Origin: Candidatus Methylomirabilis oxygeniifera
GTDB taxonomy: Bacteria; Methylomirabilota; Methylomirabilia; Methylomirabilales; Methylomirabilaceae
Assembly: GCA_000091165.1 (NCBI GenBank)
Contig: FP565575.1
Location: forward strand, 2,074,376-2,106,375
Direction of reading: 5' to 3'
Length of the DNA stretch: 32,000 nucleotides
In this document: positions 1 to 32,000 of the stretch, piece by piece
Layout: each line of letters starts with the position of its first letter
How positions within the stretch are numbered: position 1 is the stretch's first letter
Notes under the pieces: model-generated
What the model saw: only the letters and a program-made list of their open reading frames with translations
Told to the model about the DNA's origin: nothing
Database searches by the model: none
Program-made: the position numbers and the translations under genes

Positions 1-429
1 TCGCTTATCCGGCGGCACGATCAGGTTCCAGCTTTTCTTCATATCCGCCATAGAGAGCTCGGGAGGTGTGGGCGGGTCATGCTGGATGTAACGGGCCATC
101 AGGTCGCTTTCGGCGTCGGTGAGAATGCCTTGCCGACCCCAGTCCGGCATCCCGCCTCCCGTACCATTCACGATGAACGCTTTCAAAACCGGTGTAGTCA
201 AAGCGCGGGTTTTTGCCGGCAGAAGCTGCGGACCGGTTGCACCTTTTCTCAAGACCCCGTGACAGCCCGCGCACCGGTCGAAATAGATCTGCTTGGCCGC
301 CTCAAGTTCGCCAGGGGCCAGCGGTGGAGCCGGTGGAAGCGCCGGCGGCGCCTCCGCAGCCAGAACCGGAACGGTCCATAGCATGCCTAGCGCCACAGTT
401 AACACCGTCAACTTTGTTCTAGTCGTCAT
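1..429 (-). CDS. nirS: Cytochrome cd1 nitrite reductase (NirS), N-terminal 143 codons; gene continues past the left edge
   Basis: Edge-open ORF, absent from the supplied track. Reverse-strand ATG at 429..427 is directly preceded by AAGGAGAGGGC. My translation: MTTRTKLTVLTVALGMLWTVPVLAAEAPP (signal peptide) ...AAKQIYFDRCAGCHGVLRKGATGPQLLP...FIVNGTGGGMPDWGRQGILT... The CxxCH haem-c motif plus GMPxWG match the N-terminal cytochrome c domain of cd1 NirS. The frame stays open to base 1. Confidence 0.75.
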   Translation of the reverse strand, partial: MTTRTKLTVLTVALGMLWTVPVLAAEAPPALPPAPPLAPGELEAAKQIYFDRCAGCHGVLRKGATGPQLLPAKTRALTTPVLKAFIVNGTGGGMPDWGRQGILTDAESDLMARYIQHDPPTPPELSMADMKKSWNLIVPPDKR

Positions 430-773
430 GCCCTCTCCTTTCGTTAAATGGTATCCACAGGCATTCCACGGTTAGCGCGCTGTCAGACCTTACTCGCGAC
501 TCCACGTTGACTGCATACCGTTTATACTGCTCAACTGTATGCTTCTGTGACTGGTGAGCCTATTTGACACACTACCAAGCCGCATTGGGGGCCACTATCG
601 CACCGCCAGCGTCCGCCTGTCAAGGGTTTTCTTGGGCCGGACCGGACAACATATTTCGATTGAAAGCGTCTGGACAGCAATGGTAGGGTAGAGACAGAGC
701 TATACGCCGCTTTTCAGCATACAGCACCCGGAGGAACGCGAAGCCGGGAACGGACGAGTCATGGAGATACGAG

Positions 774-1832
774 ATGTTTGAGACCATCGAATGGACATCG
801 GCAGGCATGGTCCGGCTTTTGGATCAACGCCGGTTGCCGGCGGAGGAAGTGTATGTGGAGTGCCGCGATGCGGCGGCGGTCGCGCAGGCAATCCGGTCGA
901 TGCAGATTCGCGGAGCCCCGGCGATCGGTGTGGCCGGCGCCATGGGCTTGGCGTTAGCGGCGCAGTCGATTCAGGCAAGCAGTTTCGAGGAGTTCGATGC
1001 GGAGTTATCGCGCCATGGCGAGGCGCTGCGCCGGACCCGCCCTACAGCCGTGAATCTGGCATGGGGGATCGAGCGGATGCTGCGGTGCGCTCAGCAGCAT
1101 AAGGCCCTCCCGATCGCCGAGCTCGTTGAGGCCCTCATTCGGGAGGCGCAACAGATCCGGGAGGAAGACATCCGGGACAACCGGGCGATCGGCGCATACG
1201 GCCAAGGACTGATCCCCGATGGAGCCGCCGTCCTGACTCACTGTAATGCCGGGGCCCTGGCAACCGCCGGCTATGGAACCGCCCTAGGAGTGATCCGCGC
1301 GGCGCACGCGGCCGGGACCAGACTGTCGGTGTGGGCCGGTGAGACCAGACCGTTTCTGCAAGGCGCCAGACTGACCGCCTGGGAGTTGCAGCAGGACGGC
1401 ATTCCGGTGACGCTCATCACCGACAATATGGCGGGACACCTGATGCAGCGGGGCGAGATCGATCTCGTCATTGTTGGAGCCGACCGGATCGCTCGTAACG
1501 GCGACGTGGCGAATAAGATCGGAACCTACACCCTGGCCGTTCTGGCGCAAGCGCACGGGCTCCCGTTCTATGTCGCAGCCCCCCTGTCCACTCTGGATCT
1601 GTCGCTTCGCGACGGCGAGGCAATCCCGATCGAGGAGCGCGATCCCAAAGAGGTCACCGATTGGGCCGGTGTTCGGACCGCACCGGTGGGTGTGAGGGCG
1701 AGAAATCCCGTCTTCGACGTGACACCACACCGCTATATTACCGCCCTGATTACCGATCGGGGCATAGTCCGGTCCCCCTATGACTCAGGCTTATCCGCAC
1801 TGACCGGGATCGGCCCTTCGGGCAGGGTATAG
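774..1832 (+). CDS. mtnA: S-methyl-5-thioribose-1-phosphate isomerase (eIF-2B alpha/beta/delta family)
   Basis: 352-aa ORF with family hallmarks: [46 protein letters not shown]. The stop codon lies inside the heptamer repeat at 1824..1865. Confidence 0.9.
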
Positions 1833-1865
1833 GGTATAGGGTATGGGGTATAGGGTATGGGGTAG
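1824..1865 (+). repeat. Six tandem copies of a G-rich heptamer (RGGGTAT): AGGGTAT x3, GGGGTAT, AGGGTAT, GGGGTAG
   Basis: Read directly from the sequence. It spans the mtnA stop codon (TAG inside AGGGTATAG) and the first ATG of the next ORF. Six G3-4 tracts separated by 3-4 nt loops fit the G3+N1-7 G-quadruplex pattern on the + (mRNA-sense) strand. Confidence 0.9.
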
Positions 1866-4149
1866 TCGATACCCTGGATTCTATGCGTTACGTTCTACAC
1901 ACCGCTTGGTTATAATACTCTCCGCCTTTTTGCTGGTGCTGCTGGCGCCGTTGCACGCCACCGCCCAGGAGGCGTCGGTCGGATCCTTATGGCAAAAGGC
2001 GCTCGAACACATCGAGACCAACGATAACCAGGCGATACCCCTGCTCGACGATCTGCGCCACCGCGAGGGCTTCTCCAGGGCGCACGAGGCCCACTTCCTC
2101 CTGGGTGTGGCGCTATACAGACAGAAGCAGTGGCAGGAGGCCGCCGACGTATTGGAGGCAGCGGCCGCGCAGGAACCGCTGCTTGGCGACTATGCCCTGC
2201 ACTATGCCGCATCTGCCTACCAAACCCTTGGTCTGAACGCTCAGGCGCTGGCGGTGCTCTCACGTCTGCTTCATGAGCACCCGGACAGTCTGCTCACCGA
2301 ACGAGCTCGACAGGAGCGTGCACGGCTCTATCTCGGCGCAAATCAGCTTACGCAAGCCGAGGAGGCATACCGGGATTACCTGGCTCGCGCTTCGAATGAG
2401 GCGAGACGGCGAGAGGCGCTACTTGCACTGGCGGAGATCGCCCTGAAACTTGTCCCCGACCCCGATCGGGGAGCAGATAAACGACGGGAAGCCGACGCGT
2501 TGTTACGCGAGCTGTGGCTCAAGCATCCGGGAACCTGGGAGGCTGCGCGGGCCGGCGAACTCCTGGCCTCGATGGCGGAGGCGCCGCCCTTCACGGCTGA
2601 TGAGCAGTTCGAGCGAGCGCTCAGTCTGTACCGCAGCAGTCAGTACAGCCTGGCAATTACTGCATTTGCGCCCTTCTTAGACGAAGGCTCTCGCCCCTTC
2701 GACGGGGGCCAGGACAGGTTTACCTCGCGCGCAAGACTGTGGAGCGGTATCAGCCATTTTCAACGCCGGGATTACCGCCTGGCCATCAGCCTCTTGTCGC
2801 CTATGGGTCAGGACCGCTCGCTGTATTCGGCGGAAGCGCTGTACTGGATCGGACGAAGCTATGCCAGAGTTGATGACCGCGAACAGGCTGTCATGGCGTG
2901 GACCCGCCTGATCGATATCTACCCAAACAGCCCCTTCACTGCGGAGTCGCTCTACCTGATGGCGCTCCAGCACATCGACAACAGCCAACCGAAGCGGGCA
3001 ATACAAACCCTGGATCGGCTCATCAGAAATTACCAGTCGAGCCGGTTCATCGACGCCGCGTTGTGGGCCCGGGCCTGGATTCATTACAGGCAGTCGGCGC
3101 TCAAACGAGCACTCGCCGATTTACAACGACTCCAGGCGAGAGGTGCGTCAGATCCGCGATTTCAAGTGCAAGTCCTGTATTGGCAGGGGCGGGTCTTTGA
3201 AGGCCTGAAAAAAAGAAAAAAGGCAACGGAGACGTACCGGAGGCTGCTCAGTATTCACAGCGACGACGACTATTACGCCGAACAGACGTATCGCCGCCTC
3301 AGGACGCTGGGCCAAAGGGCCGCGCAGACTCGCATGCCTGTCACGAGGCGGGAGGTAGGAGGCGGGAAGCGGTTGGAATCTCCACCCGCCACCCTCCAGC
3401 CCATAGCCTGTTCTTCATCCCCTGTACCCTGCTCGTCAGGGGTCGCAAAAGCTAGGCTACTCACGGAGTTGAAACTGGGGGAAGAGGCATCGGAGGAGTT
3501 CCGGGCTCTCGCCGGGAGGTATGCGGACGACCGTGGGGTCTTATATGAGGCCTGTAGCGCGTTGCTTGACTTGGGATATCTCGAAAAAGGTGTGCGGATC
3601 GCAAAGCGCCTCCTTCGCCCACTGTACCTACAAACTCGACCCGCTGAGCCGATACCAGGGTACTGGGAGTGCCTTTACCCGCTTGGATATTGGGAACTGG
3701 TACAAGAGCAGAGTGCGCGTTATACCCTTGATCCGTACCTGGTGGTGGCACTGATCCGGGAGGAGAGTGCGTTTGGTGAACGGGTCGTATCATCTTCCGG
3801 GGCCGTCGGGTTGATGCAACTGCTCCCCACAACCGCTAACGGCCTGGTCAATAATACGGGAAAACCGGTGGAACCGGTGAAGCTCGACGTACCGCCAACT
3901 AATATCGCGCTCGGCACTCGATACCTGGCAATGATGATCAAGGAGTTCAAGGGCAATCGGGCCAGGGCGTTGGCCGCATACAATGCCGGGCCGAACCAGG
4001 TGCGCCGATGGTTAGAACGGTTGGGGGATCGAGTTGATGATGAGTTCATTGAAGAGATCCCATTCGCAGAAACAAGAGCGTATGTAAAGCGTGTTCTTGG
4101 AAGCTATTATCGCTACCGTACGCAGTATGGCAAAGAATCAGGTGGTTAG
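1843..4149 (+). CDS. Soluble lytic murein transglycosylase (Slt70-like: TPR/superhelical N-domain + C-terminal SLT lysozyme-like domain)
   Basis: C-terminal SLT motif LIREESAFGERVVSSSGAVGLMQLLPTTA ... AYNAGP. The N-terminal part is long, helical and repeat-rich. Signal-like segment VIILSAFLLVLLAPLHATAQEA. Start uncertain: the ATG at 1843 lies in the heptamer repeat, and an in-frame TTG at 1906 just before the hydrophobic core is an alternative. Confidence 0.85.
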   Translation: MGYRVWGSRYPGFYALRSTHRLVIILSAFLLVLLAPLHATAQEASVGSLWQKALEHIETNDNQAIPLLDDLRHREGFSRAHEAHFLLGVALYRQKQWQEAADVLEAAAAQEPLLGDYALHYAASAYQTLGLNAQALAVLSRLLHEHPDSLLTERARQERARLYLGANQLTQAEEAYRDYLARASNEARRREALLALAEIALKLVPDPDRGADKRREADALLRELWLKHPGTWEAARAGELLASMAEAPPFTADEQFERALSLYRSSQYSLAITAFAPFLDEGSRPFDGGQDRFTSRARLWSGISHFQRRDYRLAISLLSPMGQDRSLYSAEALYWIGRSYARVDDREQAVMAWTRLIDIYPNSPFTAESLYLMALQHIDNSQPKRAIQTLDRLIRNYQSSRFIDAALWARAWIHYRQSALKRALADLQRLQARGASDPRFQVQVLYWQGRVFEGLKKRKKATETYRRLLSIHSDDDYYAEQTYRRLRTLGQRAAQTRMPVTRREVGGGKRLESPPATLQPIACSSSPVPCSSGVAKARLLTELKLGEEASEEFRALAGRYADDRGVLYEACSALLDLGYLEKGVRIAKRLLRPLYLQTRPAEPIPGYWECLYPLGYWELVQEQSARYTLDPYLVVALIREESAFGERVVSSSGAVGLMQLLPTTANGLVNNTGKPVEPVKLDVPPTNIALGTRYLAMMIKEFKGNRARALAAYNAGPNQVRRWLERLGDRVDDEFIEEIPFAETRAYVKRVLGSYYRYRTQYGKESGG

Positions 4150-4171
4150 GCTAAAGACTGAAGGCTGAAGG

Positions 4172-5377
4172 ATGACGCTGGCAGGCAAAAAGATTGTGCT
4201 GGGTGTGACCGGGAGCATCGCCGCCTATAAGGCTGTCGAGCTGGTGCGGGCGCTTACTGCGGCGGAGGCCAACGTCCGGGTCGTCATGACCGCCTCGGCC
4301 CAACGCTTTGTGACCCCCCTGACACTGGCCACGCTCTCCCGACAAGCGGTACTGACCGACCAATCGGCTTGGGAGGCTCAGATGCCTCACCTCACCGTAG
4401 CACGCAAAACCGATCTGCTCCTCGTCGCTCCGGCCACGGCCGGCCGGATCGCCAAATTTGCTCATGGGCTCGCCGACGATCTGCTGAGTACCCTCTTTCT
4501 GGCCTGCACGCGGCCGGTGGTCCTGGCACCAGCCATGGACGCGGAGATGTATCGCCACCCCGTCGTCCAGGACAACCTGGCGCGGCTACGGAGCTGGGGA
4601 GTTCGGATTGTCGGCCCTGCAACGGGGGAGTTAGCCTCGGGAGTATGGGGTCCAGGCCGGCTGGCCGAGATCAGCGAGATTGTGCACACCGTCGACGAGA
4701 TACTCGGTCGGCAGCGCGATCTCAGCAACGAGGTGGTCCTGATTACTGCCGGCCCGACGCACGAGCCGCTCGATCCGGTCCGCTACCTGACTACCCGCGC
4801 TTCCGGCAAGATGGGGTATGCCTTAGCGGAAGAGGCGGTTATGCGAGGCGCACGCACAATTCTGATCAGTGGCCCGTCCTCCTTGGCGCCACCCCACGGC
4901 GCGGAGTGCATCGTGGTCGAGACCGCCCTGCAGATGCGCACGGCGGTGCTGGATCGGCTGGCTGAGTCGACGGTGATCATCAAGGCCGCCGCAGTCAGTG
5001 ACTACCGCCCGACTCACCCGGCCGAGTCAAAGCTCACGAAATGCGATGCGCCCATGATGTTGGAGTTAGCACCAAATCCGGACATCCTGCGCGAGATCGG
5101 CACACAGAAGGGGGCGAGGATTGTGGTCGGTTTTGCGGCGGAAACCGGTGAACTTGTGCAACGGGCTCGCCACAAGCTGTCAACCAAGCACCTCGACCTG
5201 ATCGTGGCGAACGACGTGACCCAAGAGGGCGCCGGTTTCGCCTGTGAGACCAATCGAGTGATCATCCTCGATCCGGATGGAGGGGTCGAAGAGCTTCCGC
5301 TGCTTCCCAAGCGGCTGGTGGCGCAACGGATCCTCGATCGCGTAGTGAGCCTGCGGCAACAGAAAAATAGGGTATAG
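4172..5377 (+). CDS. coaBC: Bifunctional phosphopantothenoylcysteine decarboxylase / phosphopantothenate-cysteine ligase
   Basis: N-terminal flavoprotein motif KKIVLGVTGSIAAYKAVELVRAL. C-terminal CoaB part ITAGPTHEPLDPVRYLTTRASGKMG ... AAAVSDY. 401 aa is the typical Dfp size. GAAGG lies upstream of the ATG. Confidence 0.92.
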   Translation: MTLAGKKIVLGVTGSIAAYKAVELVRALTAAEANVRVVMTASAQRFVTPLTLATLSRQAVLTDQSAWEAQMPHLTVARKTDLLLVAPATAGRIAKFAHGLADDLLSTLFLACTRPVVLAPAMDAEMYRHPVVQDNLARLRSWGVRIVGPATGELASGVWGPGRLAEISEIVHTVDEILGRQRDLSNEVVLITAGPTHEPLDPVRYLTTRASGKMGYALAEEAVMRGARTILISGPSSLAPPHGAECIVVETALQMRTAVLDRLAESTVIIKAAAVSDYRPTHPAESKLTKCDAPMMLELAPNPDILREIGTQKGARIVVGFAAETGELVQRARHKLSTKHLDLIVANDVTQEGAGFACETNRVIILDPDGGVEELPLLPKRLVAQRILDRVVSLRQQKNRV

Positions 5378-5396
5378 GGTGTAGGGGTTAGGGTAT
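5369..5396 (+). repeat. Second, degenerate copy of the G-rich heptamer repeat (AGGGTAT AGGGTGT AGGGGTT AGGGTAT)
   Basis: Read directly. It overlaps the coaBC stop (again ...AGGGTATAG) and runs into the TAGGAGG ribosome-binding site of the downstream UDG gene. It has four G3-4 tracts. Confidence 0.8.
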
Positions 5397-5409
5397 TAGG
5401 AGGCGCAGT

Positions 5410-6144
5410 ATGATTGAAATCGCCGGTCCCGAGATTGACGAGCTTCGCGAGCTGATCGGTCAGACACGCGCCCACGTTCGCAGGCAGCAACGCTTGGGTG
5501 TGGAACGTCTGTACGTCGCGTGGCCTGAACGCGCGGAGGGGCTTCCTGAACCATCCCCGACGCTTACCAAGGTGCGGGAGACGGTGGGGGAGTGCACGCG
5601 GTGCAAGCTGCACAAGGATCGGAAGCATATCGTGTTCGGGATCGGGAACCCGAAGGCCTGGCTGGTCTTCGTTGGGGAGGCGCCAGGGGCGGATGAAGAC
5701 GAACAGGGCGAGCCGTTCGTCGGACGAGCCGGACAGTTGCTGACCAGGATCATCGAGGCGATGAAGCTGACCCGCGAACAGGTGTATATCTGTAACATCG
5801 TGAAGTGCCGGCCCCCGGCCAATCGCAACCCGGAACCGGATGAGATCGCCGCCTGCGAGCCGTTCCTGGTCGCACAGCTTCAGGCTATCCGGCCGAAATT
5901 GATCTGCGCGCTGGGCACCTTTGCGGCCCAGACGCTCCTGCGCACCAGGGAGCCGATCTCGAAACTACGTGGGCGATTTCACGACTATCATGGGATCCTG
6001 GTCCTGCCCACCTTCCATCCCGCCTATCTGCTGCGTAACCCGCACGAAAAGAAGACGGTCTGGGAGGACATGAAACTTCTGATGCGGGAGTACGAGCAAC
6101 TCGGTAACACGCGGCCTCTCGCCTCAGCGCCAGAATTCTCTTGA
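5410..6144 (+). CDS. Uracil-DNA glycosylase, family 4 (Fe-S type)
   Basis: Motifs GECTRCKLH ... [27 protein letters not shown] ... HPAYLLR. RBS TAGGAGG lies 7 nt upstream of the ATG. Confidence 0.9.
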
Positions 6145-6197
6145 CGATCCGATCGAGATAACACAATTTAATACACAATACTCGAAGGAGGTGTGAC

Positions 6198-6527
6198 ATG
6201 TTCAAGCCTGGATGGTACACGTGGTGGTACGGCGGCGTCATGACCTGTCTTGCGACCGCCCTATTTCTCTTCCTGTCAGCTTCGGCTGACGCCGGTCTGG
6301 TTTCCGGACGCGTCAATGATGCAAAAGGGACATTTCAGTCCGGAGGAAGTTTCCGCGTAAAAGATTCATCCGGCAAGGTGATCAAAGATTCCGTGAAAAC
6401 AGATGAGTCGAAAGGGTATAGTCTCTTCCTGCCTCCCGGTATCTACACGGCGGAGTTCAGCGATGGCAGAAGCGCAGTCATTCAGAGCCATCCGGAGCCG
6501 ATACGGCAGGACATTCAGTTAAAGTGA
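6198..6527 (+). CDS. Small secreted protein, carboxypeptidase-regulatory-like (beta-sandwich) domain candidate
   Basis: Strong RBS GAAGGAGG 7 nt before the ATG. Hydrophobic signal VMTCLATALFLFLSASADAG. The pattern SGRVxDxxG...V...G...TDxxGxYSLxLPPGxY resembles CarboxypepD_reg-type domains. The domain call is from memory only. Confidence 0.55.
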   Translation: MFKPGWYTWWYGGVMTCLATALFLFLSASADAGLVSGRVNDAKGTFQSGGSFRVKDSSGKVIKDSVKTDESKGYSLFLPPGIYTAEFSDGRSAVIQSHPEPIRQDIQLK

Positions 6528-6542
6528 GTGCAGAGGAAGGCC

Positions 6543-7517
6543 ATGCCACCCGATCATGAAGGGGGTTTCAGTCGCGTCCTGCACGTGATCGATACCATAG
6601 CCAAACTTGCCACGCCGGTAGCGGTGATTATCGCGGCATGGGTAGGCGCTCGCCTTGCGAACTCTTTCCAGCAAAGAATGGCGGAAACTACATTGCACAG
6701 TCAGCGACAGATTGCGGGCACTACCCTGCTCAGTGAGCGGGAAAAGGCCGAGAGCGAGCTGCGGGCCTCCATGTTTAACAGTCTCATCAATCCGTTCGTC
6801 GGATCCCAGGGTGGCGAGCAGATTTCTGCCGATCGGGAACAACTGTTGGTAGAGCTGCTGGCTCTCAACTTTCACGAACACTTTGAACTGAAGCCGTTAT
6901 TCGAGCGCGTAGATCAGAGACTCGCCAGGGAAGGAAAGCTGGAGGCGCGTAGCGCGTTAAGGTCGATTGCCGATCGAATTATCGATCGGCAGACAGCCGC
7001 GCTGAGCAAGGAGGGGAGTAGTAACAGCTCAACAGGGGATGGGGCGAGGATTGACGTGTTGACCATTACCGAACCGCCGCGAGCCCCCGGCCAGAAGGCG
7101 GTGTTTGAGTTGCTTGCAGCCAACGAGCAACGACCGTTTCAGATTGTTGGAACATTGAAGGAACCGATCGAGGATCTGAAATCGCCCGATGGAGCCCAGA
7201 AAGTCACGATCGTCGTCGATGACGCCGATTGGGCAAACCAGAAGTTTAAGATCCAATTGCTTATGGTCGGCACCAAGTCCGGCTTGGTGAACTCCAATAC
7301 GGCATTTACGCTCAGCAGGTTCGATTTTCCACTGACCGACAATACCCTCTTTTCAGATGGGAACCGCATCGCGTTGGCTGTCTCAAGCATTCGCGTTGAT
7401 GGGGTGCTCAAGAGTGCGGCTCTCAAGTTGATCTGGTTCCCAAAAAATTATTTTACGCCGCGGGAGCGGCCGCTGGATTACGCCGAGTTTCTGAAACTGG
7501 TAGGAAAGAAAACATAG
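6543..7517 (+). CDS. Hypothetical N-terminally membrane-anchored protein (no recognisable domain)
   Basis: ORF 6528..7517. I prefer the ATG at 6543, which follows GAGGAAGG. One N-terminal TM helix (IAKLATPVAVIIAAWVGARLA), then a helical region and a probable beta-rich C-terminal half. G+C is lower than in the flanks. Confidence 0.55.
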   Translation: MPPDHEGGFSRVLHVIDTIAKLATPVAVIIAAWVGARLANSFQQRMAETTLHSQRQIAGTTLLSEREKAESELRASMFNSLINPFVGSQGGEQISADREQLLVELLALNFHEHFELKPLFERVDQRLAREGKLEARSALRSIADRIIDRQTAALSKEGSSNSSTGDGARIDVLTITEPPRAPGQKAVFELLAANEQRPFQIVGTLKEPIEDLKSPDGAQKVTIVVDDADWANQKFKIQLLMVGTKSGLVNSNTAFTLSRFDFPLTDNTLFSDGNRIALAVSSIRVDGVLKSAALKLIWFPKNYFTPRERPLDYAEFLKLVGKKT

Positions 7518-7574
7518 GGTGTTCGTAGGTATATCATGCCCAGGCGTGACCATAAGAGAAAGGAGAAGTATAGG

Positions 7575-8270
7575 ATGACAAGAAGGGCGCCAGTCTTTGT
7601 TGCTATAGTGCTGAGCTTGGCCCTCACGGGATGCCGGATGAAGAGCGATATGAATCTCAAGGCTGCCAAGGTAAGCTCCTCAGCCGTCTACTGCCTCTTC
7701 GATCCATCCTGTGCGGTAACCGTCATCGACAGTAGTACCACTCCCATCCCGATGCAGGCTGGGGGAACGGCTTTCCTTCAGTCCCGCACCTTCACGGGTA
7801 AGCCTGGTACACCGGCGAGCGGTCTGTACGGGTATGAGTACCGGATTGATCTCGAGAAGGCCGTTCAGACCAAGATTCAGGTCGAGGAGCTCGGTGAGGA
7901 GATCACGTACATGCCTTGTCTGCGGTCTATAACGTTTGAGTTCGGTCCTATCATCGATACCTTGGATTACGATAGCGATGGGAAGGCCGGAGACCTGGCC
8001 TATGTCGTGACGAGCGGCGGTCCTGGAAAGATAGGCCTGGGATCTATAGAGCGGTACCACGGCCTGCTTACGTTTATCTTCGACTCTCCCCTCTGCGTCG
8101 GAAGTCCCCAGGGTCAGGGCGATAGTACCTTCGTCTTCGGCCTTGCCTCCGCAAAGCCGCCGAGGTCCGTCGAGTCAACTATCAAGGAGACAGCCGGTTT
8201 GGGCGCGGCATCACCAAAGATGAAGAAAAATATCAAATACAAAGTGCAGGTCCATGCGCCTCAGATTTGA
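7575..8270 (+). CDS. Hypothetical lipoprotein
   Basis: ORF 7536..8270. An internal ATG at 7575 follows AAGGAGAAG and gives MTRRAPVFVAIVLSLALTGC, a signal peptide with a lipobox (L-A-L-T-G-C). No recognisable domain. Confidence 0.6.
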   Translation: MTRRAPVFVAIVLSLALTGCRMKSDMNLKAAKVSSSAVYCLFDPSCAVTVIDSSTTPIPMQAGGTAFLQSRTFTGKPGTPASGLYGYEYRIDLEKAVQTKIQVEELGEEITYMPCLRSITFEFGPIIDTLDYDSDGKAGDLAYVVTSGGPGKIGLGSIERYHGLLTFIFDSPLCVGSPQGQGDSTFVFGLASAKPPRSVESTIKETAGLGAASPKMKKNIKYKVQVHAPQI

Positions 8271-8461
8271 GGCCAGCCATCAGATGACACAAGCACCTGT
8301 GGCGATCAGGCAGAAAATCTGATCTGGCGCAAGACCCAGGCCGACCGTGGACCGGTAGCGAATAACCGTCACCGGTCTACGGTCGGGAAGCCACCTCCAG
8401 GCGGTGCTCGCTTTTACTACAGTCCTTTACAGATAAAGGCCGCCTCAGCTATAGTCCGGGT

Positions 8462-11062: not shown

Positions 11063-11071
11063 GCAAGCAGC

Positions 11072-11124
11072 GATCAGCCGTCAGCTTTCAACGTCCTTTG
11101 CTGACGGCTGATCATTTGTCTTTT
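11072..11124 (+). terminator. Rho-independent terminator after priA
   Basis: Perfect 14-bp stem GATCAGCCGTCAGC (11072..11085) / GCTGACGGCTGATC (11100..11113), followed by ATTTGTCTTTT. Confidence 0.75.
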
Positions 11125-11132
11125 GACCGGTG

Positions 11133-11954
11133 ATGTATTACAGTAGCAACGTCATGGCTAAAATGGTGGGCTGGCGAGAGGCTGATTCGTGGCTTCACAA
11201 GGGAGAATCCCTGGATGGCCTTGGCTCTTCCGATCTGAAAGTCATCCAGAGCCTGACGGGTTTCCGCCATTCGATGGATGCGCTATTGCTGGCGCAGTGG
11301 GCCGCGCCGCGATCGACCGACCGGGTCCTTGATCTCGGCTGCGGAAACGGCGTGATCGCCTTCCTGCTGGCTCATCGACATCCGGAGCTTCGCATAGTCG
11401 GGCTTGAGGTTCAGCCCGCCTTGGCCGATCGGGCCAGGCGGGGAGTGCACCTCAACGGGTTACAGGGCCGCATCGAGATCGTGGAGGGCGACCTCCGTCA
11501 GGCCAAAGGGCTGCTACCGATCGCGGGTTTTGATATGGTTCTCTGTAACCCGCCATATCGAGAGTTGGCCAGCGGACGGCTCAGTCCGGATCCGGAGATC
11601 CGACAGGCCAAACATGAGTTGACCGCCACCCTAGAGGAGGCGATTGCGGCCGTCCGATACCTGCTCGCTCCAAAAGGGCGAGCGTGCCTGATCTACCATG
11701 CCTCACGGCTCGTCGATCTGCTGAGCAGTCTCAGGGCCGTGCGGCTGGAACCGAAGAGATTGCGGTTGGTCCACTCTTACCCCGGCGCCGAGGCGGAACT
11801 GAGCTTGGTGGAGGCGCGACGGCACGGGCGACCGGGACTGCAGATCCTTGCCCCTCTGTTCGTCTATCAGGCACGAGGCGGCCCTTTATCGCCTGACATG
11901 GAAGCGATCTATCGCGGTTTGACCTTGTCTGAAGTTCGGAGTACAGTCGCATGA
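11133..11954 (+). CDS. Class I SAM-dependent N6-adenine methyltransferase, tRNA1(Val) m6A37 (YfiC/TrmN6)-like
   Basis: SAM motif I VLDLGCGNGVIAF and the catalytic NPPY tetrapeptide (VLCNPPYRE). Start ambiguous (GTG 11130, ATG 11133, ATG 11154). The stop overlaps the next start (ATGA). Confidence 0.75.
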   Translation: MYYSSNVMAKMVGWREADSWLHKGESLDGLGSSDLKVIQSLTGFRHSMDALLLAQWAAPRSTDRVLDLGCGNGVIAFLLAHRHPELRIVGLEVQPALADRARRGVHLNGLQGRIEIVEGDLRQAKGLLPIAGFDMVLCNPPYRELASGRLSPDPEIRQAKHELTATLEEAIAAVRYLLAPKGRACLIYHASRLVDLLSSLRAVRLEPKRLRLVHSYPGAEAELSLVEARRHGRPGLQILAPLFVYQARGGPLSPDMEAIYRGLTLSEVRSTVA

Positions 11955-22999: not shown

Positions 23000-23246
23000 T
23001 GTTACCTCCCGTGGTTCTACCTCATTCGAGGTGACCACCTTGCATTGTTATTACCGTGCCGTCTTGAGTTGGGATGATCCCAATTCACCGGGGGCGCCCG
23101 CGCTTCGCGAACAGTGCACAGGGCGCGGGTTTGACGGCAACCGCCTGTTGGAACAGGCGGTGACCCGCTACACTGCTTACCGATTCTCATCATACCGTCC
23201 ATGGGGAACGCCTCCTCTGCGCCAATACTGCGATCCCCTGTAGGCT

Positions 23247-23569: not shown

Positions 23570-24472
23570 TCACGCTGCCTTATTGGGCTCCTTTGGAGCC
23601 CCTGGCGCCTGTCCTGCCTCCGCGCGAGCCGCAGGCTCCCGCCGTGCAATCTCGTTCACGTAGGCGACAGCCTCCAGTCGTGAGTGAACCTTGAGCTTAC
23701 TGAAGATGTTCTGGATGTGGTTTCTCACTGTAGTTTTACTGATGAAAAGCTGCTCCGCGATAGCCGCCGTCGTTGCGCCCGTCCGCATCAGGGTAACAAC
23801 CTGCAGCTCTCGCCGAGTTAAGTCACCGACAGGAGATACGGTCTTTTCGCTCGCCGTAAGTTGAGTCTGAGCCAGTTGTTGCCGAACAAGCACCTCAAGC
23901 TGGTGCGCCGCAGTGACATCACGGAAGAGATGAACAACTGTCGGGGGTTGGTTGTCCTCACAGGGAAGAGCAACACAGCTCACATCGATCCATAGCGGTT
24001 TACCCGTCCTCGTCCGAGTAGCCATCTCGAAATGCTGGATCAGATCTCCACGGCTCAACGTCATCTTCAGCGGGCAAGGCCACTGACAAAGCTGATTGCC
24101 GTTACTATCACGGCCGTTGAAGAACTCACGGCATTGCTGTCCGACAACTTGTTGCGCGGAAGCTTCCAGGATAGTTTCAGCGGCTTGGTTGCAGAACAGA
24201 ATCTCTCCGGTCGGCGCACTGACAAACACGCCATCGGCCGTCTCAGCGAAAAGCTTGAAGGCGGCTTCGCGTGGTTCCGTAGGCTGTCCGCTTCCCGGCT
24301 CGTTTCGCGAATCCTTTTCATCGACTTCATCAACTGCAGGTGTAAGCCGATGCTCGTCTTCGCCGTCTATGCGGTAGTCGACTGCCTCGCCTGTACGGAC
24401 ACCGCCATCACGCCGCAGGCCTGCCCTGGAAATTCGCACCGAACGTTTCGGTCCGTTGCCTGAATGCGCCAT
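23570..24472 (-). CDS. PAS-domain / LuxR-type HTH transcriptional regulator
   Basis: C-terminal LuxR/FixJ HTH LTRRELQVVTLMRTGATTAAIAEQLFISKTTVRNHIQNIFSKLKVHSRLEAVAY. The central segment is PAS-like (FKLFAETADGVFVSAPTGEILFCNQAAETILEASAQQVVGQQCREFF...) and contains six Cys. No receiver domain. Confidence 0.85.
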   Translation of the reverse strand: MAHSGNGPKRSVRISRAGLRRDGGVRTGEAVDYRIDGEDEHRLTPAVDEVDEKDSRNEPGSGQPTEPREAAFKLFAETADGVFVSAPTGEILFCNQAAETILEASAQQVVGQQCREFFNGRDSNGNQLCQWPCPLKMTLSRGDLIQHFEMATRTRTGKPLWIDVSCVALPCEDNQPPTVVHLFRDVTAAHQLEVLVRQQLAQTQLTASEKTVSPVGDLTRRELQVVTLMRTGATTAAIAEQLFISKTTVRNHIQNIFSKLKVHSRLEAVAYVNEIARREPAARAEAGQAPGAPKEPNKAA

Positions 24473-24743: not shown

Positions 24744-24920
24744 GACGCCCATCCTAAGGTCTAAGGCCCCACTGCAAGTCCGCACGGAGGTTAGGAAGCC
24801 CGCGTACGCCAAGCTAGAGATGGTCTCATCGGGGCGGGGTTGCTTCAGAGCCCCGCATCAGCAAAGCGCTCTGAATTCAGGAGCGCCGTGGTTAACCTAA
24901 AGAGCAGAGGGAGGGGGATC

Positions 24921-26444
24921 ATGGCTCAAAGAGGGTGGTGGATTCGTGGTGCCGTTGTGGGCAGTGCTTTACTGCTCGCTCCGGTTGGGGCGTGGGCCGA
25001 CAAGCTCACGGATCTCGAGCAGGCCTTTGATGCGCAGCAGAAGTCGTTGCAGCAGTTGCAACAGGAGATGCAGCGGCTGCGGCAGGAGCGATCCGCGCAA
25101 CAGGAAGATGTCACCAGGCGCGTGATGGAGGTAGAAAAGAAGGCTGCAGAGGCCGCGGCATCGGCATGGCAAGTCGGATTTGATCCTTGGCCAGGGAAAG
25201 GCTTCTACGTGAAGTCGACCGACGGCCAGCACCGACTGAGTATCGGCGGGTACGTGCAAACCTTGGCGCAAGTCGAGGCATCGCGAAATGAAGAGGATGT
25301 CGACTCAGCAGACAAGTCGGCAGCGATCAATCGACATAGGGCCAGCACCTTGAAGCTGCACCGCGTCAGGCTCCACTTTGATGTTCAACTCTTCAAGGAC
25401 TTTGGTCTCCACATCAACCCGGAGTTCGTCGGCCCCACCGATACCAAGGGCAGCGGACCCTCCAGCACCACACGGATCGAAGCGGCGTTTGGTCACTACA
25501 CGTATGCCCCCTGGTTGAGGGTAAAGGTGGGGCAGTTCAGGGACCAGTACGCGCTCGAGAACGGCTCGGTCCCTCAGGACCTGTACTTCGCCGCTCAGCG
25601 GTCGTTTATCACCAGAGCGCTGTCTCCAGACCTGCAGATGGGTCTCATGCTCTTCGGTGGGACGAAGCTCGCCGACATGCTGCCCATCTCCTACAGCGTG
25701 GGCGTCTATAACGGTTGCGGCCGGGTCGATCAGTGCACCACCGATAACGACGGCGATAAGGAGTATACCGGTCGAATCACCATTGCGCCCCCGATGCCGA
25801 TCGGGAATCTCACCGTCGGCGCCAACGCCGATTTCCGCACCTTCAACAATAAGAAGGGTGGCGCTCGCGACCTTGCGACGAATCCCGTCGCCGGCACCAA
25901 CTACCACCGCTTCAACCCGACCAGCGTGTTGGGCGACCTCTTCGGGGGTGACGGTAACGGCACGAGCATGAACGGCTTCCGGATCAACGGCGACCGCACC
26001 ACGACCGGTGCCGACTTTGTGTATGACCTCTACCCGATCATCCTGACGGGTGAGTTCCACTACGCCTCCCAGGAGCGCGACGGATTGGGCACGGGCAGCA
26101 ACGTCAATCTCGATGATCTCCGCATGATGGGTGGCTATGGAACCGTCGGCTATTGGGTCTTCGGCAACAAACTGAAGGGCCTGCTGGTCAACGGCCGCTA
26201 CGAGCACCTGCGGGTCGACGATACGAAGGGCAATTTCACAGCGGCTGCCGGTACTAATGAGCAGACGTTGAGGGTGCGCGTCGGCACCATGGGCGCAACC
26301 TGGTATGTCAACCCCAACATCTTCGTCCGGGCTAACTACGTGCTTACCGACGTCAACCCGGGGAAAAACTTCTTTGGGGTGAGCAACAATACGCAAGGCG
26401 AGTTGACCCACCAGGGAATCGCCGAGGCGGTATTCAAGTTCTAA
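24921..26444 (+). CDS. Outer-membrane anion-selective porin, OprO/OprP (Porin_O_P) family
   Basis: I prefer the ATG at 24921, after GAGGGAGGGGG. Signal peptide MAQRGWWIRGAVVGSALLLAPVGAWA. The N-terminal coiled coil LTDLEQAFDAQQKSLQQLQQEMQRLRQER is common in this family. Alternating beta-strand patterns. C-terminal ...EAVFKF with terminal Phe, the OMP signature. Confidence 0.75.
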   Translation: MAQRGWWIRGAVVGSALLLAPVGAWADKLTDLEQAFDAQQKSLQQLQQEMQRLRQERSAQQEDVTRRVMEVEKKAAEAAASAWQVGFDPWPGKGFYVKSTDGQHRLSIGGYVQTLAQVEASRNEEDVDSADKSAAINRHRASTLKLHRVRLHFDVQLFKDFGLHINPEFVGPTDTKGSGPSSTTRIEAAFGHYTYAPWLRVKVGQFRDQYALENGSVPQDLYFAAQRSFITRALSPDLQMGLMLFGGTKLADMLPISYSVGVYNGCGRVDQCTTDNDGDKEYTGRITIAPPMPIGNLTVGANADFRTFNNKKGGARDLATNPVAGTNYHRFNPTSVLGDLFGGDGNGTSMNGFRINGDRTTTGADFVYDLYPIILTGEFHYASQERDGLGTGSNVNLDDLRMMGGYGTVGYWVFGNKLKGLLVNGRYEHLRVDDTKGNFTAAAGTNEQTLRVRVGTMGATWYVNPNIFVRANYVLTDVNPGKNFFGVSNNTQGELTHQGIAEAVFKF

Positions 26445-26572: not shown

Positions 26573-26824
26573 ATGAAGTTCATCACGTTAGCCAAGGTGA
26601 GGCCTGGCGCATGGTCCAGGCTGACCAGCGAGCTTCCTGCTGCCTGCTATGAGGGGATGAAGTGGGCGTACGTCACCTACGGCCAATATGATGTGGCGTT
26701 CGAATGGGAAGCGAAGGATTTGGAAACAGCAAATAAGGTCATGAAGCATATGGCCGGATCCGACCTTCTGGCATCTGAGACTTTGGTCGTCGCTTCGACG
26801 CTGAAGGAATTCGGCCAAGTCTAG
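26573..26824 (+). CDS. GYD-domain protein (small alpha/beta protein of unknown function)
   Basis: 83 aa. MKFITLAKV...YVTYGQYDVAFEWEA matches the GYD family signature around G-x-Y-D. RBS GGAAGGAAGGAG upstream. Confidence 0.7.
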   Translation: MKFITLAKVRPGAWSRLTSELPAACYEGMKWAYVTYGQYDVAFEWEAKDLETANKVMKHMAGSDLLASETLVVASTLKEFGQV

Positions 26825-27067: not shown

Positions 27068-27317
27068 GGCTACGTATGGCGTAGCTCCTGTAGGTAATCA
27101 CCGGGAGTAAACCAGAGAGGCGTAGAGTGTGCCCCTCTTGTCGGCTTCCCTAACTGAACGTGGACATACTGATGAGAAAGAAAGGGTGGGCTGGCCGGTA
27201 CGCGGGGATTAGTATGAGAGACTTTCGCTTAGAAAGGTGTTATGCGTCTTGTATGACGTCCCGGATTTTTGGTGCACGGTTTCAGTACGTCCGGATAACA
27301 CAAAGGAGGTTATTGCC

Positions 27318-29246
27318 GTGAACAAGCGTTACCTGAAGGTTGCGGGTGTGGTCGCCCTGATCCTCGTGGTCACGGCCGTAGCCTTTCTACCGTTCTATTG
27401 GAATCCCAAGAAAGCTTCTAGTCAGGTGATCTTCAGTGACTTTATAGACCTAGTGGAAAAGGGGGAGCTCGCCGGAACGGTGATCTTCAACGAAAACAGC
27501 CACACCCTTTACTTCCATATCGCTTCAGGACAGCACCTGCGGACAGTGTACAGCAAAGAGGCTACCGCATCTCTACAAGAGCTGCTGAAGCAGAAGGGCG
27601 TCCACTTTGCTGTTGAGCCACAAAGCGGAGGCTCAATCTGGGTCAGCCTGTTATTCAACTTCCTGCCCTTCCTTCTGATTATCGGACTGTTTGTGCTGAT
27701 GAGCCGACGGTCCCAGATGGGGGGTGGTGGCGGCGGTCCGATGGCATTCGGAAAATCAAAGGCCAAACTCCACGACGCATCCAAGCCCAAGGTGACGTTC
27801 GCGGACGTCGCCGGAGAGGAAGAGCCAAAGGAAGAGCTGCTGGAGGTTATTGAGTTTTTGAAACATCCTCAAAAGTATCAGGCGCTGCACGCCAAAATCC
27901 CAAGAGGATTGCTGCTGGTAGGTCCCCCAGGCTGCGGAAAGACGCTCCTGGCCAAGGCCGTTGCCGGGGAGGCCGGGGTCCCCTTCTTCTCGCTTTCCGG
28001 TTCCGAGTTCGTGGAGGTCTTCGTCGGTGTGGGCGCCAGCCGCGTCCGCGATCTGTTTGAGCAGGCCAAGAAGAACGCCCCGTGCCTGGTCTTCATCGAC
28101 GAGATCGACGCAGTAGGTCGCCACCGCGGGGCCGGCCTTGGTGGCGGCAATGATGAGCGCGAGCAGACGTTAAACCAACTACTGGTGGCCATGGACGGCT
28201 TTGAGGCCAATATCGGGATCATTGTGATTGCCGCCACCAACCGACCGGATATCCTGGATCCTGCGTTGCTGCGCCCAGGGCGATTTGACCGGCGCATCAT
28301 CGTGGATAACCCGGACAGCAAAGGCCGTAAGGCGATCCTGCAAGTGCACCTGCGCGAGATACCGCTGGCAGCAGACGTCAACGTTGACGTGCTCGCCAAA
28401 CAGACGCCTGGATTTTCAGGAGCGGATCTTGCCAGCGTGGTGAACGAGGGGGCGCTTTTGGCTGCCCGGCGCGACAAAGACCGCGTCAGTATGGTCGACT
28501 TTGACGAGGCGGTCGAGCGAGTCATTGCGGGGCCGTTGCGCCGCAGTCGCGCCTTGACTCCGAAAGAGCGCGAGATGGTGGCCTATCATGAAGCCGGCCA
28601 TGCCATCCTGCGTAAGCTCCTGCCTAAGGCCGATCCGCCCCATAAGGTGACGATTGTCTCGCGCGGGATGGCGCTTGGCTATGTCATGGGAGCACCGCCG
28701 GAGGACCGCTACACCCGGACGCGCTCCGAACTGATGGCGGAGGTCAGTGTCGGCATGGGTGGCCGTGTCGCCGAGGATCTGATCTTCGGCGAGATTACCA
28801 CCGGCGCCTCAAATGACTTTGAGCAGGCCACCAACATGGTGCGCCGAATGGTGACCAATTTCGGGATGTCGGATAAACTCGGTCCGGTGACCCTGGGTAG
28901 ACAGGGCGGTCCCGTCTTTCTCGGTCGCGATATGATCGACAGTAGAAACTACAGTGAGGAGATCGCCTACCAGATCGACCAGGAGGTCCGCCGGATCATC
29001 GATGAGTGCTACCAGGTGGCCCGCCAGGCGATCGAGACAAACCGCGAGAAACTGCAGCGGGTGGCAAAAGCCCTGATCGAACGCGAAACCCTCTATGCCG
29101 AGGAGTTGGACGACGTGATGGCGGGAAAGGTCGTAGCGCTTGAACCATCGCGGGCTGCCGCCAGTGGTGAAGCAGCGGTTGTCGAGGCCGGCACTGAGAA
29201 TGCGTCGCCCGCGACGCCGTCGGCGCCTGCGCCACCACCGGCCTGA
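27318..29246 (+). CDS. ftsH: ATP-dependent zinc metalloprotease FtsH
   Basis: AAA+ Walker [24 protein letters not shown], Walker [14 protein letters not shown] region, Zn motif HEAGHAI. I prefer the GTG at 27318, 7 nt after AAGGAGG, over the upstream start at 27237. Two N-terminal TM helices. Confidence 0.95.
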
Positions 29247-29427: not shown

Positions 29428-30192
29428 TTACGCCGCTTTTTTCTTGCGTCTCACATACAGCACGGCGCCGATTCCCACGCCGGCAACCGTCATCACCAAA
29501 ATTGCCGGATTGCTCATCATGGACGGACCGCGCGCGCCCCCCCCCCTGGGTGTCTTCAATCCGACGGTAAAGGGGAAGCTGAAGGTCGAATCGTGTGCAT
29601 GATACGCCTCCTCTTCCGCTGTACTGGTATGCTGCTCGGCGCCGTCGTGACTGTGACTGACCGCCTCCGGTGCGTCGCCTCCGGCACGTGATCTCGCTCC
29701 CTGCTCCTCAACCTCCAGTACCGCCCTATACTTCCCGGCTTTTCCGAAATCCGTCTCAGCCCGCACGACACCTGAAGGATAGACCTGTTGAGGGATATAC
29801 AGAACCGTTTGGGCGTCTTCACGCTCGGTGGCCTCGACGACGCGGACCGCCACAGGGGTCTTTCGCAGGGCATCGCTGATAAGATCAAACGTCAGCGTCG
29901 CCTTTCCTGTTCTTGGAATATCCCGACAGTAGGATTGAAACTCTTCCTTCATCGCATCCACGTACCGCCTCAGGTCCGCATCCTTAAGCTCTTTGAGCTG
30001 AGCCAGCTGTGAGGCCCGGTCCGCCGTCCCATGCTGATAGGCGCTGAAGTGAATGAGATACTGCCCTTTCTCCCTCGAACAGAGATCGTTCTCCGTGATC
30101 CCACCCATGCCGCCGCCACCGTGAGCCCATGCCTGCGACGCTCCCATCACAGCCATCAGCGCTACAACTCCAATCGAAACACACTGCTTCAT
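29428..30192 (-). CDS. Periplasmic His-rich protein with C-terminal TM anchor; PmoD/AmoD-like copper-protein candidate
   Basis: Signal peptide MKQCVSIGVVALMAVMGASQAWA with predicted cleavage before HGGGGMGG. Motif C-SREKGQY-L-I-H (C-X7-L-X-H). His-rich acidic linker SHSHDGAEQHTSTAEEEAYHAHD. C-terminal TM AILVMTVAGVGIGAVLYV plus RRKKK. It lies downstream of pmoB on the same strand. Confidence 0.65.
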   Translation of the reverse strand: MKQCVSIGVVALMAVMGASQAWAHGGGGMGGITENDLCSREKGQYLIHFSAYQHGTADRASQLAQLKELKDADLRRYVDAMKEEFQSYCRDIPRTGKATLTFDLISDALRKTPVAVRVVEATEREDAQTVLYIPQQVYPSGVVRAETDFGKAGKYRAVLEVEEQGARSRAGGDAPEAVSHSHDGAEQHTSTAEEEAYHAHDSTFSFPFTVGLKTPRGGGARGPSMMSNPAILVMTVAGVGIGAVLYVRRKKKAA

Positions 30193-30575: not shown

Positions 30576-30594
30576 GATCGTCTCCCTCCTTCCG

Positions 30595-31863
30595 CTATTT
30601 GTACTGGGTAGTCGGCCGCCATTTGCCTCCGCCGGACAGGGCCGTTGCGCCACCCTCGAAGGACGGAATGACCGGGCCGCCGACCTCAACAATTTGTCTG
30701 TTCTTATCCGCATCAAAGAACTCAAAGAGTCCGCCGTACCGGCTGTCTGAGTCATAGATCAACTCAGCCAACCGCTGATATTCCCATTCCGCATCGGTCG
30801 CATCTATCGACATCGTTACGGTCTGGCCTGGAGGGATGGGACCGGCCGGCTCCACCTTGATTTTGAGTCGCGAGTCAGGGAAGAGGGCCGGATCCCGAAA
30901 CTGCAGGTTGGCCGTGATGAATCCTCCCAATTGCTGAGGCCTGTTTGAACCGTTTGTGACCTCTATCACCATCCCAAGAGAACGTCCAGGTACGGTATAG
31001 ACCGCTGTGACAGGCCTGGCCTTCACCGTGGCATGGGAATACGGCGTAAACTCTGTCGTGGGCTTCAGTTCGGGAGTATCCATCCGACCGGTCTGCAGCG
31101 GGATGGTGATTGGGTAGGCGCCGTTCGTCGTGACGTAGCCGATAGCGACGATGAGGACCGTGGCGATCATCAGTACGAGTCCAAGCGTCCGATCGCCGGG
31201 GCTAACAAGCTCCTCCTCAGGTACCACTCCCACCTGGAAGAGACGTCGCGTAAATGGCCGTCGTACCCACCACAGCAACCAGAACACACCGACAAAAGTC
31301 CAGAGGAGCCACCAGCCGATGATCCGACCTTGCCCATGGACCTCCATATTCACTGTCGTACCATCAATGGTGGTAACGTTATTGGTGAAGTTACTCCAGT
31401 CGCCATCGACGGTGACGAACTCGCCTCCACCGACCAGGGGCCCTCCACCCTCGATATTCACCATCGGGTGAACGTGATAGGTCCCGGTGACCCGGCCCAT
31501 AATATTCATTCTATAATCATAGTCTCCGCCAAGTTGAGTACTGGTGGCGTTGATGACCGGCATGCCATTCATCCATGCCTCTTTCTTGAGCATTGATGGC
31601 CCAGGCACGGAGTAATGGAGAAAGATCGATTCGGGGGTGTTTACGGCCCTCGGCCATTCACTAAATGTATGGAACTTTCCCGTCAGATCCATGGTCTCGC
31701 CAGGCTGTACCCGAGCTTTTGACCATTTCGTATCGTAGAACGTTATTGTACGCATCCGAAGAAACGGCTCTTGCGATCGCTCGCCATGCGCCCATGCCGT
31801 TCCAGCGGATACGGCGATCACTCCAAGCAAGATCGCCGACAACGCCGCTCGTCCTATCCTCAT
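30595..31863 (-). CDS. pmoB: Particulate methane monooxygenase subunit B
   Basis: I prefer the ATG at 31863 after GGGAGGATAACG. The signal peptide ends ...GTAWA, then HGERSQEPFLRMRTITFYD (compare the canonical mature PmoB N-terminus HGEKSQ..F.RMRT). HxH copper-ligand motif TYHVHPMVNIEGGGP. Two internal TM helices (IIGWWLLWTFVGVFWLLWWV; LGLVLMIATVLIVAIGYV). Two cupredoxin-like halves. Confidence 0.92.
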   Translation of the reverse strand: MRIGRAALSAILLGVIAVSAGTAWAHGERSQEPFLRMRTITFYDTKWSKARVQPGETMDLTGKFHTFSEWPRAVNTPESIFLHYSVPGPSMLKKEAWMNGMPVINATSTQLGGDYDYRMNIMGRVTGTYHVHPMVNIEGGGPLVGGGEFVTVDGDWSNFTNNVTTIDGTTVNMEVHGQGRIIGWWLLWTFVGVFWLLWWVRRPFTRRLFQVGVVPEEELVSPGDRTLGLVLMIATVLIVAIGYVTTNGAYPITIPLQTGRMDTPELKPTTEFTPYSHATVKARPVTAVYTVPGRSLGMVIEVTNGSNRPQQLGGFITANLQFRDPALFPDSRLKIKVEPAGPIPPGQTVTMSIDATDAEWEYQRLAELIYDSDSRYGGLFEFFDADKNRQIVEVGGPVIPSFEGGATALSGGGKWRPTTQYK

Positions 31864-31929
31864 CGTTATCCTCCCAGGTTCGTGGGTAAGCGTCAACACA
31901 TTCGCATCATAGCGCCACATGGGGTTGCC

Positions 31930-32000
31930 TTATAGCCTTCCATCGAGAACCCCACGGCCCACATCGATGACAACTACGTCCGCGAGATCCATGCCGGCCT
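31930..32000 (-). CDS. 3' end (about 22 codons) of an upstream co-directional gene; pmoA expected from the canonical pmoCAB order but not verifiable here
   Basis: Edge-open reverse frame ...AGMDLADVVVIDVGRGVLDGRL ends with TAA (31932..31930), 66 nt before the pmoB start. GC3-rich codons. Identity is inferred from operon order only. Confidence 0.3.
   Translation of the reverse strand, partial: AGMDLADVVVIDVGRGVLDGRL

Follow-up and report, generated by a model that had tools for sequence, protein, structure and literature searches.

The 32,000-nucleotide stretch of the Candidatus Methylomirabilis oxygeniifera genome analyzed here (contig FP565575.1, positions 2,074,376 to 2,106,375; hereafter "the window") holds genes for the three modules of the published intra-aerobic pathway of methane oxidation: nirS for cd1 nitrite reductase, the tandem genes nod1 and nod2 for two putative nitric oxide (NO) dismutases, and pmo genes for particulate methane monooxygenase (pMMO). 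It is very likely that these modules are neighbors that make up neither a single operon nor a contiguous island. A preliminary description of this DNA, made from the sequence alone, had placed nirS, two nod-like genes, and the pmo genes within one 32-kb window, and all of these elements are indeed present. The same description had called the region a compact intra-aerobic locus. The gene identities and their linkage agree with that view, whereas a 13-kb block of unrelated genes, separate promoter regions, and the lack of the accessory cytochromes in the related assembly GCA_003104975.1 do not. The locus is therefore real, more than a product of chance, and conserved in the genus, and its interpretation as a single locus is partly supported. 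All the genes highlighted earlier, and the pathway itself, are already known from publications on this genome.

The gene map is based on a Pfam scan of 23 gene-like open reading frames (ORFs). The regulator and PmoD proteins are exact matches to proteins of Ca. Methylomirabilis oxyfera, whose published locus tags include Damo_2408-2415 for the nap, nirS, and heme d1 genes and Damo_2451 for pmoC, as well as the tags for NOD1, NOD2, pmoB, and pmoA given below (PMC3413370, PMC6094997). Relative to these published genes, the sequence is the same and the genes are without any difference. However, those reports list the genes singly, without comment on how close together they lie, on the ancestral block between them, or on the differences among promoters. 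The genes most relevant to the pathway and its immediate neighborhood are as follows, where qNor denotes quinol-dependent NO reductase (qNOR) and aa denotes amino acids.

1..429, minus strand: first 143 codons of nirS, with a signal peptide and a heme c domain (CAGCH)
17280..19706, minus strand: nod1 (Damo_2434), putative NO dismutase of 808 aa, qNor-like with the Nod signature
20567..22999, minus strand: nod2 (Damo_2437), putative NO dismutase of 810 aa, qNor-like with the Nod signature
23570..24472, minus strand: PAS plus LuxR/GerE one-component regulator (CBE69506.1; Pfam), directly upstream of nod2
24840..26444, plus strand: Porin_O_P outer-membrane porin (Pfam), its position kept in relatives
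26573..26824, plus strand: 83-aa GYD-domain protein (Pfam)
27237..29246, plus strand: FtsH-type AAA/M41 membrane protease (Pfam); 642 aa from the start called in a sister strain
29428..30192, minus strand: pmoD (CBE69515.1), 254 aa, matching PmoD of PDB 6CPD (E 2e-6)
30595..31863, minus strand: pmoB (Damo_2448), 422 aa, PF04744 (E 9e-121)
31974..32000, minus strand: last 8 codons and stop of pmoA (Damo_2450), RPAWISRT, identical to the C-terminus of the 243-aa PmoA

The two partial genes at the window edges can be identified by extending them on other contigs. The nirS portion is identical at 143 of 143 residues to the N-terminus of a 546-aa protein with cytochrome c and Cytochrom_D1 domains, which is encoded on contig L082 of an M. 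oxyfera metagenome-assembled genome. Thus, the heme c domain lies in the window, and the Cytochrom_D1 domain lies on L082, where nirJ, nirF, napA, napB, and a nirD/L-type gene are found beyond nirS. At the opposite edge, PmoB scores above the cut-off of the NCBIfam model AmoB_BACT and aligns end to end with the PmoB chains of solved pMMO structures (E 3e-100); its start is likely at 31863 (422 aa) rather than at 31920. The pmoC gene is located past pmoA and outside the window, and pmoC and pmoA are seen on contigs L081 and L101. These results confirm both edge ORFs, and the earlier statements that the window opens with the 5′ end of a cd1 nitrite reductase gene and closes with pmoB and the tail of its upstream gene prove correct, with that tail belonging to pmoA. 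The order C-A-B followed by pmoD is common to this species and to the pmoCAB(D) operons of aerobic methanotrophs. In contrast to those operons, the one described here is ~7.5 kb from a tandem pair of nod genes, which was not seen in any nod locus outside NC10.

Nod1 and Nod2 are 83% identical to each other (published as 84%; PMC3413370), and Pfam assigns to each a heme-free N-terminal NorB_cytochrome_c-like domain (PF22085) and a COX1 domain (PF00115). This two-domain architecture is shared with qNOR (3AYF/3AYG), and Nod2 can be aligned over its full length with the Geobacillus stearothermophilus enzyme 3AYF (E 4e-130). The FeB ligands His508 and His559 and residue Glu512 are kept in Nod, whereas the FeB histidine His560 is replaced by Asn (ISHNFYW versus GIGHHYYY), the catalytic-site Glu581 is replaced by Gln (STMQVLP versus SALEVIP), and three quinol-site residues are changed (His328 to Glu, Glu332 to Gly, and Asp746 to Gly). 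Nod1 has the same motifs as Nod2, including ISHNFYW, STMQVLP, AEDFVGG, and IGG. Because these FeB, catalytic, and quinol-site residues are replaced, Nod is not a canonical qNOR. Indeed, the same changes are the features by which DAMO_2434 and DAMO_2437 were defined as putative NO dismutases (PMC3413370). As a result, the gene identity of the two atypical qNORs that had been noted, for which the reaction from NO to N2 and O2 is proposed, stands for both copies. Orthologs of each copy are 91-95% identical between species and the paralogs are 82-85% identical, and therefore the tandem duplication predates the species split. Pfam also revealed no nosZ, norC, or canonical norB gene among the 23 ORFs, in agreement with the claim that none of these genes lies between the modules.

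The neighborhood is conserved across Methylomirabilis, as was established by look-ups anchored on PmoB and PriA. The order in the genus is nirS, mtnA through nadE, nod1, nod2, the PAS-LuxR gene, the porin gene, the GYD gene, ftsH, pmoD, and pmoBAC, and the other Methylomirabilis genomes in which the order is kept have PriA proteins that are 75-85% identical. Five further assemblies (L088, L089, L092, L093, and L094; PmoB 87-91% identical) carry the run pmoC-pmoA-pmoB-pmoD-ftsH-GYD-porin-regulator-nod. The other portion, from nirS through mtnA…nadE to two nod genes and the regulator gene, is found in GCA_003104975.1 (L095) and in GCA_900218215.1 (L097), the latter with the cytochrome group, and M. 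limnetica (L096) carries nirS through priA up to the contig end. In GCA_003104975.1, loci L088 and L095 reside on the same 188,888-bp contig, and the whole arrangement occupies positions 1-31,638. The tag numbers of M. lanthanidiphila (NOD mela_02433/02434 and pmoA mela_02442; PMC6094997) agree with the same gene order. With this linkage conserved and both edge ORFs confirmed, neither of the grounds named for refuting the preliminary description applies. The genome scan recovered few long NC10 contigs, as assemblies tend to be interrupted at the nod paralogs. The probability that three positions placed at random on a 2.75-Mb circle all lie within 32 kb is ~4e-4, and therefore an accidental proximity of the three modules is unlikely.

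The feature that most clearly divides the neighborhood is a run of ~13 kb of housekeeping genes between nirS and nod. Its genes, with functions assigned by Pfam, are as follows.

774..13626, plus strand: entire housekeeping block, 11 genes unrelated to the pathway
774-1832, plus strand: mtnA-like gene (IF-2B)
1843-4149, plus strand: SLT/TPR transglycosylase gene
4172-5377, plus strand: coaBC
5410-6144, plus strand: udg
6198-8270, plus strand: three genes of unknown function (109, 329, and 244 aa) with no Pfam match
8462-11062, plus strand: priA
11130-13626, plus strand: genes for a methyltransferase and a CN-hydrolase, and nadE

Two outgroup genomes, L098 (GCA_975100275.1; PriA 68% identical) and L099 (PriA 47% identical), keep the series mtnA-SLT-coaBC-udg-priA-…-CN-hydrolase-nadE. 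The block is flanked there on its left by groESL and a helicase gene or by a response-regulator gene and on its right by unrelated genes, and none of nirS, nod, and pmo lies beside it in either outgroup. Because the block is present in these genomes without the pathway genes, it arose before the genus did, with the nir/nap and nod-pmo genes as separate modules at its two ends. Neither this housekeeping run nor the ftsH and GYD genes between nod and pmo appeared in the preliminary description.

Candidate transcription signals also differ among the three modules. The sites found in the window are listed below, where SD denotes a Shine-Dalgarno sequence.

594..623, minus strand: putative sigma-70-type nirS promoter, CTTGACAGG-N18-GATAGT, kept in an alignment of four Methylomirabilis genomes
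19707-19980, minus strand: long, conserved 5′ leader of nod1
20004-20036, minus strand: nod upstream element before nod1, TGCATC-N21-ATTTAC, overlapping -35-like TTTACA and -10-like TACATT (19980..20036 with the promoter)
20242-20214, minus strand: second promoter-like site of nod1
20484..20527, minus strand: intrinsic-terminator-like hairpin with a 20-bp perfect stem and a T run, ~40 nt past the nod2 stop codon
23000..23232, minus strand: conserved 5′ leader of nod2 with predicted hairpins, containing a short ORF with SD and ATG (23202..23017)
23249-23281 and 23318-23351, minus strand: two tandem copies of the nod upstream element before nod2, 69 bp apart, ATATGCATC-N-TCGCAGGATTTAC

The element TGCATC-N21/22-ATTTAC lies ~280-350 nt before the start codon of both nod genes. 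It has only three matches in the window, its separate halves have no convincing match elsewhere in the window, and nine other Methylomirabilis loci keep it upstream of nod. Because the pattern was built from these three sites, a shuffle statistic does not count as independent evidence for it, whereas its conservation across species does. We infer that this element is a candidate target of the PAS-LuxR protein encoded next to nod2. It was not found upstream of nirS or pmoC, nor upstream of nod outside Methylomirabilis, and a cis-element common to nirS, nod, and pmo was accordingly rejected as a candidate. Upstream of pmoC and outside the window lies a conserved sigma-54-type sequence, TGGCA(C/T)-N5-TTGC, ~330 nt before the gene (L093 269-283), together with a conserved sigma-70-type site, CTTGACAGG…TATGCT. 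A gene adjoining pmoCAB encodes a protein with Fer2, sigma-54-activator, and HTH_8 domains (L101 1115-3267). This combination suggests that pMMO may be under redox-sensing, enhancer-dependent control. Within the window, no sigma-54-type site was found even with one mismatch allowed.

Separate conserved promoter regions precede nirS, nod1, nod2, and the regulator, porin, ftsH, and pmoC genes. Together with the use of both strands and the strong terminator predicted after nod2, this layout is not that of a single transcription unit. These sequence features point to nirS, nod1, nod2, and pmoCAB as separately controlled units.

The long nod leaders share additional features. A hairpin, GTGGYCACCT…AGGnAGARCCAC, is located just 5′ of the ribosome-binding site in both, and an alignment includes nine compensated pairs, although its six sequences from one genus are too few for a structure claim. 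The short ORFs of the nod1 and nod2 leaders have the common motif M..M..I…G.P…R.TR.L…RAPP. Between close strains, the C-terminus is altered by a 1-nt indel, and in M. iodofontis (L076) the frame is broken by a 20-nt insertion. The SD sequence, the ATG, and the motif favor a real small protein and the frame changes argue against one; the conserved leader may act either as an RNA or through a peptide.

Comparison with nod loci in other phyla also helps to delimit the modules. The His-Asn-Gln signature occurs in 78 of 79 nod-type hits, with loci in other phyla 58-73% identical. Among the ~72 loci outside NC10 with this signature, none has pmoB within 10 kb of nod and two (L036 and L048) have a nirS-like sequence nearby. 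Therefore, unlike the window, nod loci in other phyla (bioRxiv 10.1101/2023.11.21.568154) are without pmo and rarely have nirS within 10 kb, and none of them was seen to carry a further nod copy. What these loci do share with the window is a LuxR-type regulator gene immediately upstream of nod, which we observed in at least seven loci outside NC10 and which has been reported previously (bioRxiv 10.1101/2023.11.21.568154). Because a LuxR-type gene accompanies nod across phyla, the regulator belongs to nod and not to the whole region. Thus, the "dedicated regulator" of the preliminary description exists, but it is tied to nod rather than to the locus.

Two other observations concern these distant loci. 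A gammaproteobacterial locus (L038 15948-16088) carries, ~4 kb from the gene with the nod signature, another qNor-like gene in which the His-His-Glu residues are canonical. Three acidobacterial loci have genes for FtsH homologs that are 52-54% identical to the FtsH of the window and lie 0.3-4 kb from nod (L007 13371-15077, L012 4035-5747, and L013 6329-8014). This is unconvincing evidence that FtsH is associated with nod outside NC10, given that the three loci are interrelated and FtsH is highly conserved, and the proximity may be a coincidence.

Downstream of nod1 is a group of accessory redox genes. The ORF starts given below are maximal, and some of the ORFs overlap.

13826..17070, minus strand: entire accessory redox group
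13826-14683, minus strand: membrane protein of unknown function
14367-15299, minus strand: Tll0287-like protein with one CXXCH
15229-15933, minus strand: 5-CXXCH cytochrome
16123-16410, minus strand: 95-aa ORF
16645-17070, minus strand: mono-heme cytochrome c

The mono-heme and 5-CXXCH cytochromes, along with Porin_O_P and the PAS-GerE protein, match the earlier mention of c-type cytochromes, a porin, and a regulator. No informative NCBIfam model was obtained for Nod, PmoD, or the group with the Tll0287-like gene. The redox group is present in L002 and L097 (M. oxyfera strains, GCA_900218215.1) and is absent from the same place in GCA_003104975.1 (L095 15080-15179), an assembly in which 99 bp separate nadE from nod1. 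This group of cytochrome genes is thus dispensable.

These findings are consistent with the following scheme. Periplasmic cd1 NirS reduces nitrite to NO. Nod1 and Nod2, membrane proteins of the heme-copper-oxidase type that derive from qNor and lack the quinol site, would then convert two NO to N2 and O2, as proposed in the literature, and pMMO (PmoCAB, with PmoD) would hydroxylate methane with the Nod-derived O2. In the genome, the nirS-nirJ-nirF-napAB group occupies the left end of the ancestral mtnA…nadE block, and the group consisting of nod1, nod2, the PAS-LuxR, porin, and GYD genes, ftsH, pmoD, and pmoBAC occupies its right end. Expression of nirS would be driven from a strong sigma-70-type site. 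Both nod genes would be governed by their common, nod-specific element, the presumed PAS-LuxR target, and subsequently by their long conserved leaders. Finally, pmoCAB would rely on a sigma-54-type and a sigma-70-type site, with the gene for a Fer2-domain enhancer-binding protein adjoining.

An alternative that we regard as unlikely is that the whole 32 kb works as a single functional unit, such as a supra-operon or an island, that was co-acquired or assembled and is kept by selection. In that case, the PAS-LuxR protein would regulate the entire unit, and the porin and cytochromes would be parts dedicated to it. Consistent with this possibility, the three modules would rarely be found so close together under random placement, their order is conserved across Methylomirabilis species, and the segment from the regulator gene to pmoD is intact in every genome examined. 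Furthermore, the transcripts of nod and those of pmo increase and decrease in parallel in Ca. M. tolerans (PMC8906906), which is compatible with co-expression and is no proof of common control. However, a single unit would have to accommodate a pre-genus housekeeping block between nirS and nod, opposite strands, a terminator after nod2, at least five promoter regions, a nod element that is missing upstream of nirS and pmoC, and a pmoC gene with a sigma-54-type site and its own adjoining activator gene. LuxR-type genes accompany nod in other phyla without nearby pmo, and the cytochrome group is missing in L095. Several signs of an island are also lacking: the 32-kb window includes no tRNAs, the Pfam scan of the 23 ORFs revealed no integrase or transposase domains, and the G+C content shifts only slightly, from 0.54-0.63 in the housekeeping part to 0.53-0.61 in the nod-pmo part. 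In contrast, nirS and nod-pmo are missing beside the conserved block in L098 and L099, as an island would be in relatives. No Rfam family has a match in the window.

It is quite improbable that the co-location lacks functional meaning, having arisen by accident in the common ancestor of Methylomirabilis and persisted because too little time has elapsed for rearrangement. The unrelated intervening genes are as well conserved in order as the pathway genes, the methanol dehydrogenases, H4MPT enzymes, nar, and other nor genes reside elsewhere in the genome (PMC6094997), and the nod neighborhood is inconsistent across phyla (bioRxiv 10.1101/2023.11.21.568154), all of which an accident would explain. 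Against it are the low chance probability, the fact that both modules adjoin the same ancestral block, and the flux of genes around modules that have nonetheless stayed together: the cytochrome group has been lost or gained, M. limnetica has an additional peptidase gene, and M. iodofontis carries the mtnA/coaBC remnants. We likewise give little credence to the idea that the qNor-like proteins handle NO in another way, as cytochrome-fed NO reductases or as NO sensors or scavengers, which would leave the locus with no O2-producing step. In favor of this idea, no isolated enzyme has ever been shown to possess Nod activity (PMC6094997), nod1 is followed immediately by cytochrome genes in M. oxyfera and L097, and nod-signature genes are widespread in organisms without known O2-dependent hydrocarbon activation. 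Nevertheless, both paralogs have substitutions at the quinol site and at key catalytic positions, H560N and E581Q occur in each of the 78 nod-type genes checked, and the cytochrome group can be dispensed with in L095. Moreover, little N2O production has been reported and no N2O reductase gene identified (PMC3413370, PMC6094997), and both nod genes are highly expressed and among the most abundant products (PMC3413370).

Several points weigh against the interpretation that we favor, in which the modules are separately controlled neighbors. The lack of nod and pmo in the outgroups holds only for the flanks of the block. The promoters and terminator are predictions whose conservation extends over one genus rather than mapped transcript ends, and the differences among promoters may be compatible with a common upstream signal. 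Gene order that is kept within a single genus does not distinguish selection from common descent, given that the unrelated intervening genes are equally conserved. In addition, the central step, in which two NO would yield N2 and O2, remains a proposal; we found no purified or biochemically characterized Nod in the literature and the PDB sequence matches include no structure of a Nod.

A more speculative idea, to which we assign only a slight chance, is that the genus-wide placement of nirS, nod, and pmoCAB around one block reflects selection for proximity. Coupled transcription, translation, and membrane insertion might set Nod beside pMMO so that O2 is passed on before it escapes. If so, FtsH, PmoD, and the porin might serve in maintenance and supply, and the PAS-LuxR protein, the tandem element, and the leader might set the rate of O2 formation. 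Any such benefit of co-location is our own conjecture.

Among the proposed routes by which organisms produce O2 without light, the one encoded by this locus, coupled to methane oxidation, is the best known, and it is relevant to methane and nitrogen cycling. To this knowledge, our analysis makes a modest addition, which consists of the genus-wide conservation, the two modules that flank a pre-genus block, the differing promoter regions, the dispensable cytochrome group, and the nod-specific upstream element and long leader, which could guide regulatory experiments. These new details are minor.

Some minor observations relate to the ancestral block and its borders. The trio of genes at 6198-8270 has a lower G+C content (0.54) and is kept in Methylomirabilis but not in the outgroups, and the M. 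limnetica homolog of its 109-aa protein is marked CarboxypepD_reg. In M. iodofontis bin48 (L076 3234-4131), inverted and frame-broken fragments of mtnA (aa 2-45) and coaBC are located between the porin gene and the nod regulator gene; these remnants reflect either a past rearrangement between the block borders or an assembly artifact. Lastly, tgt-yajC is positioned left of nir/nap in M. oxyfera (L082 1-1266) and, inverted, to the right of the block in GCA_975100275.1 (L098 22053-22508), which suggests that an inversion occurred along with the insertion of nir/nap.

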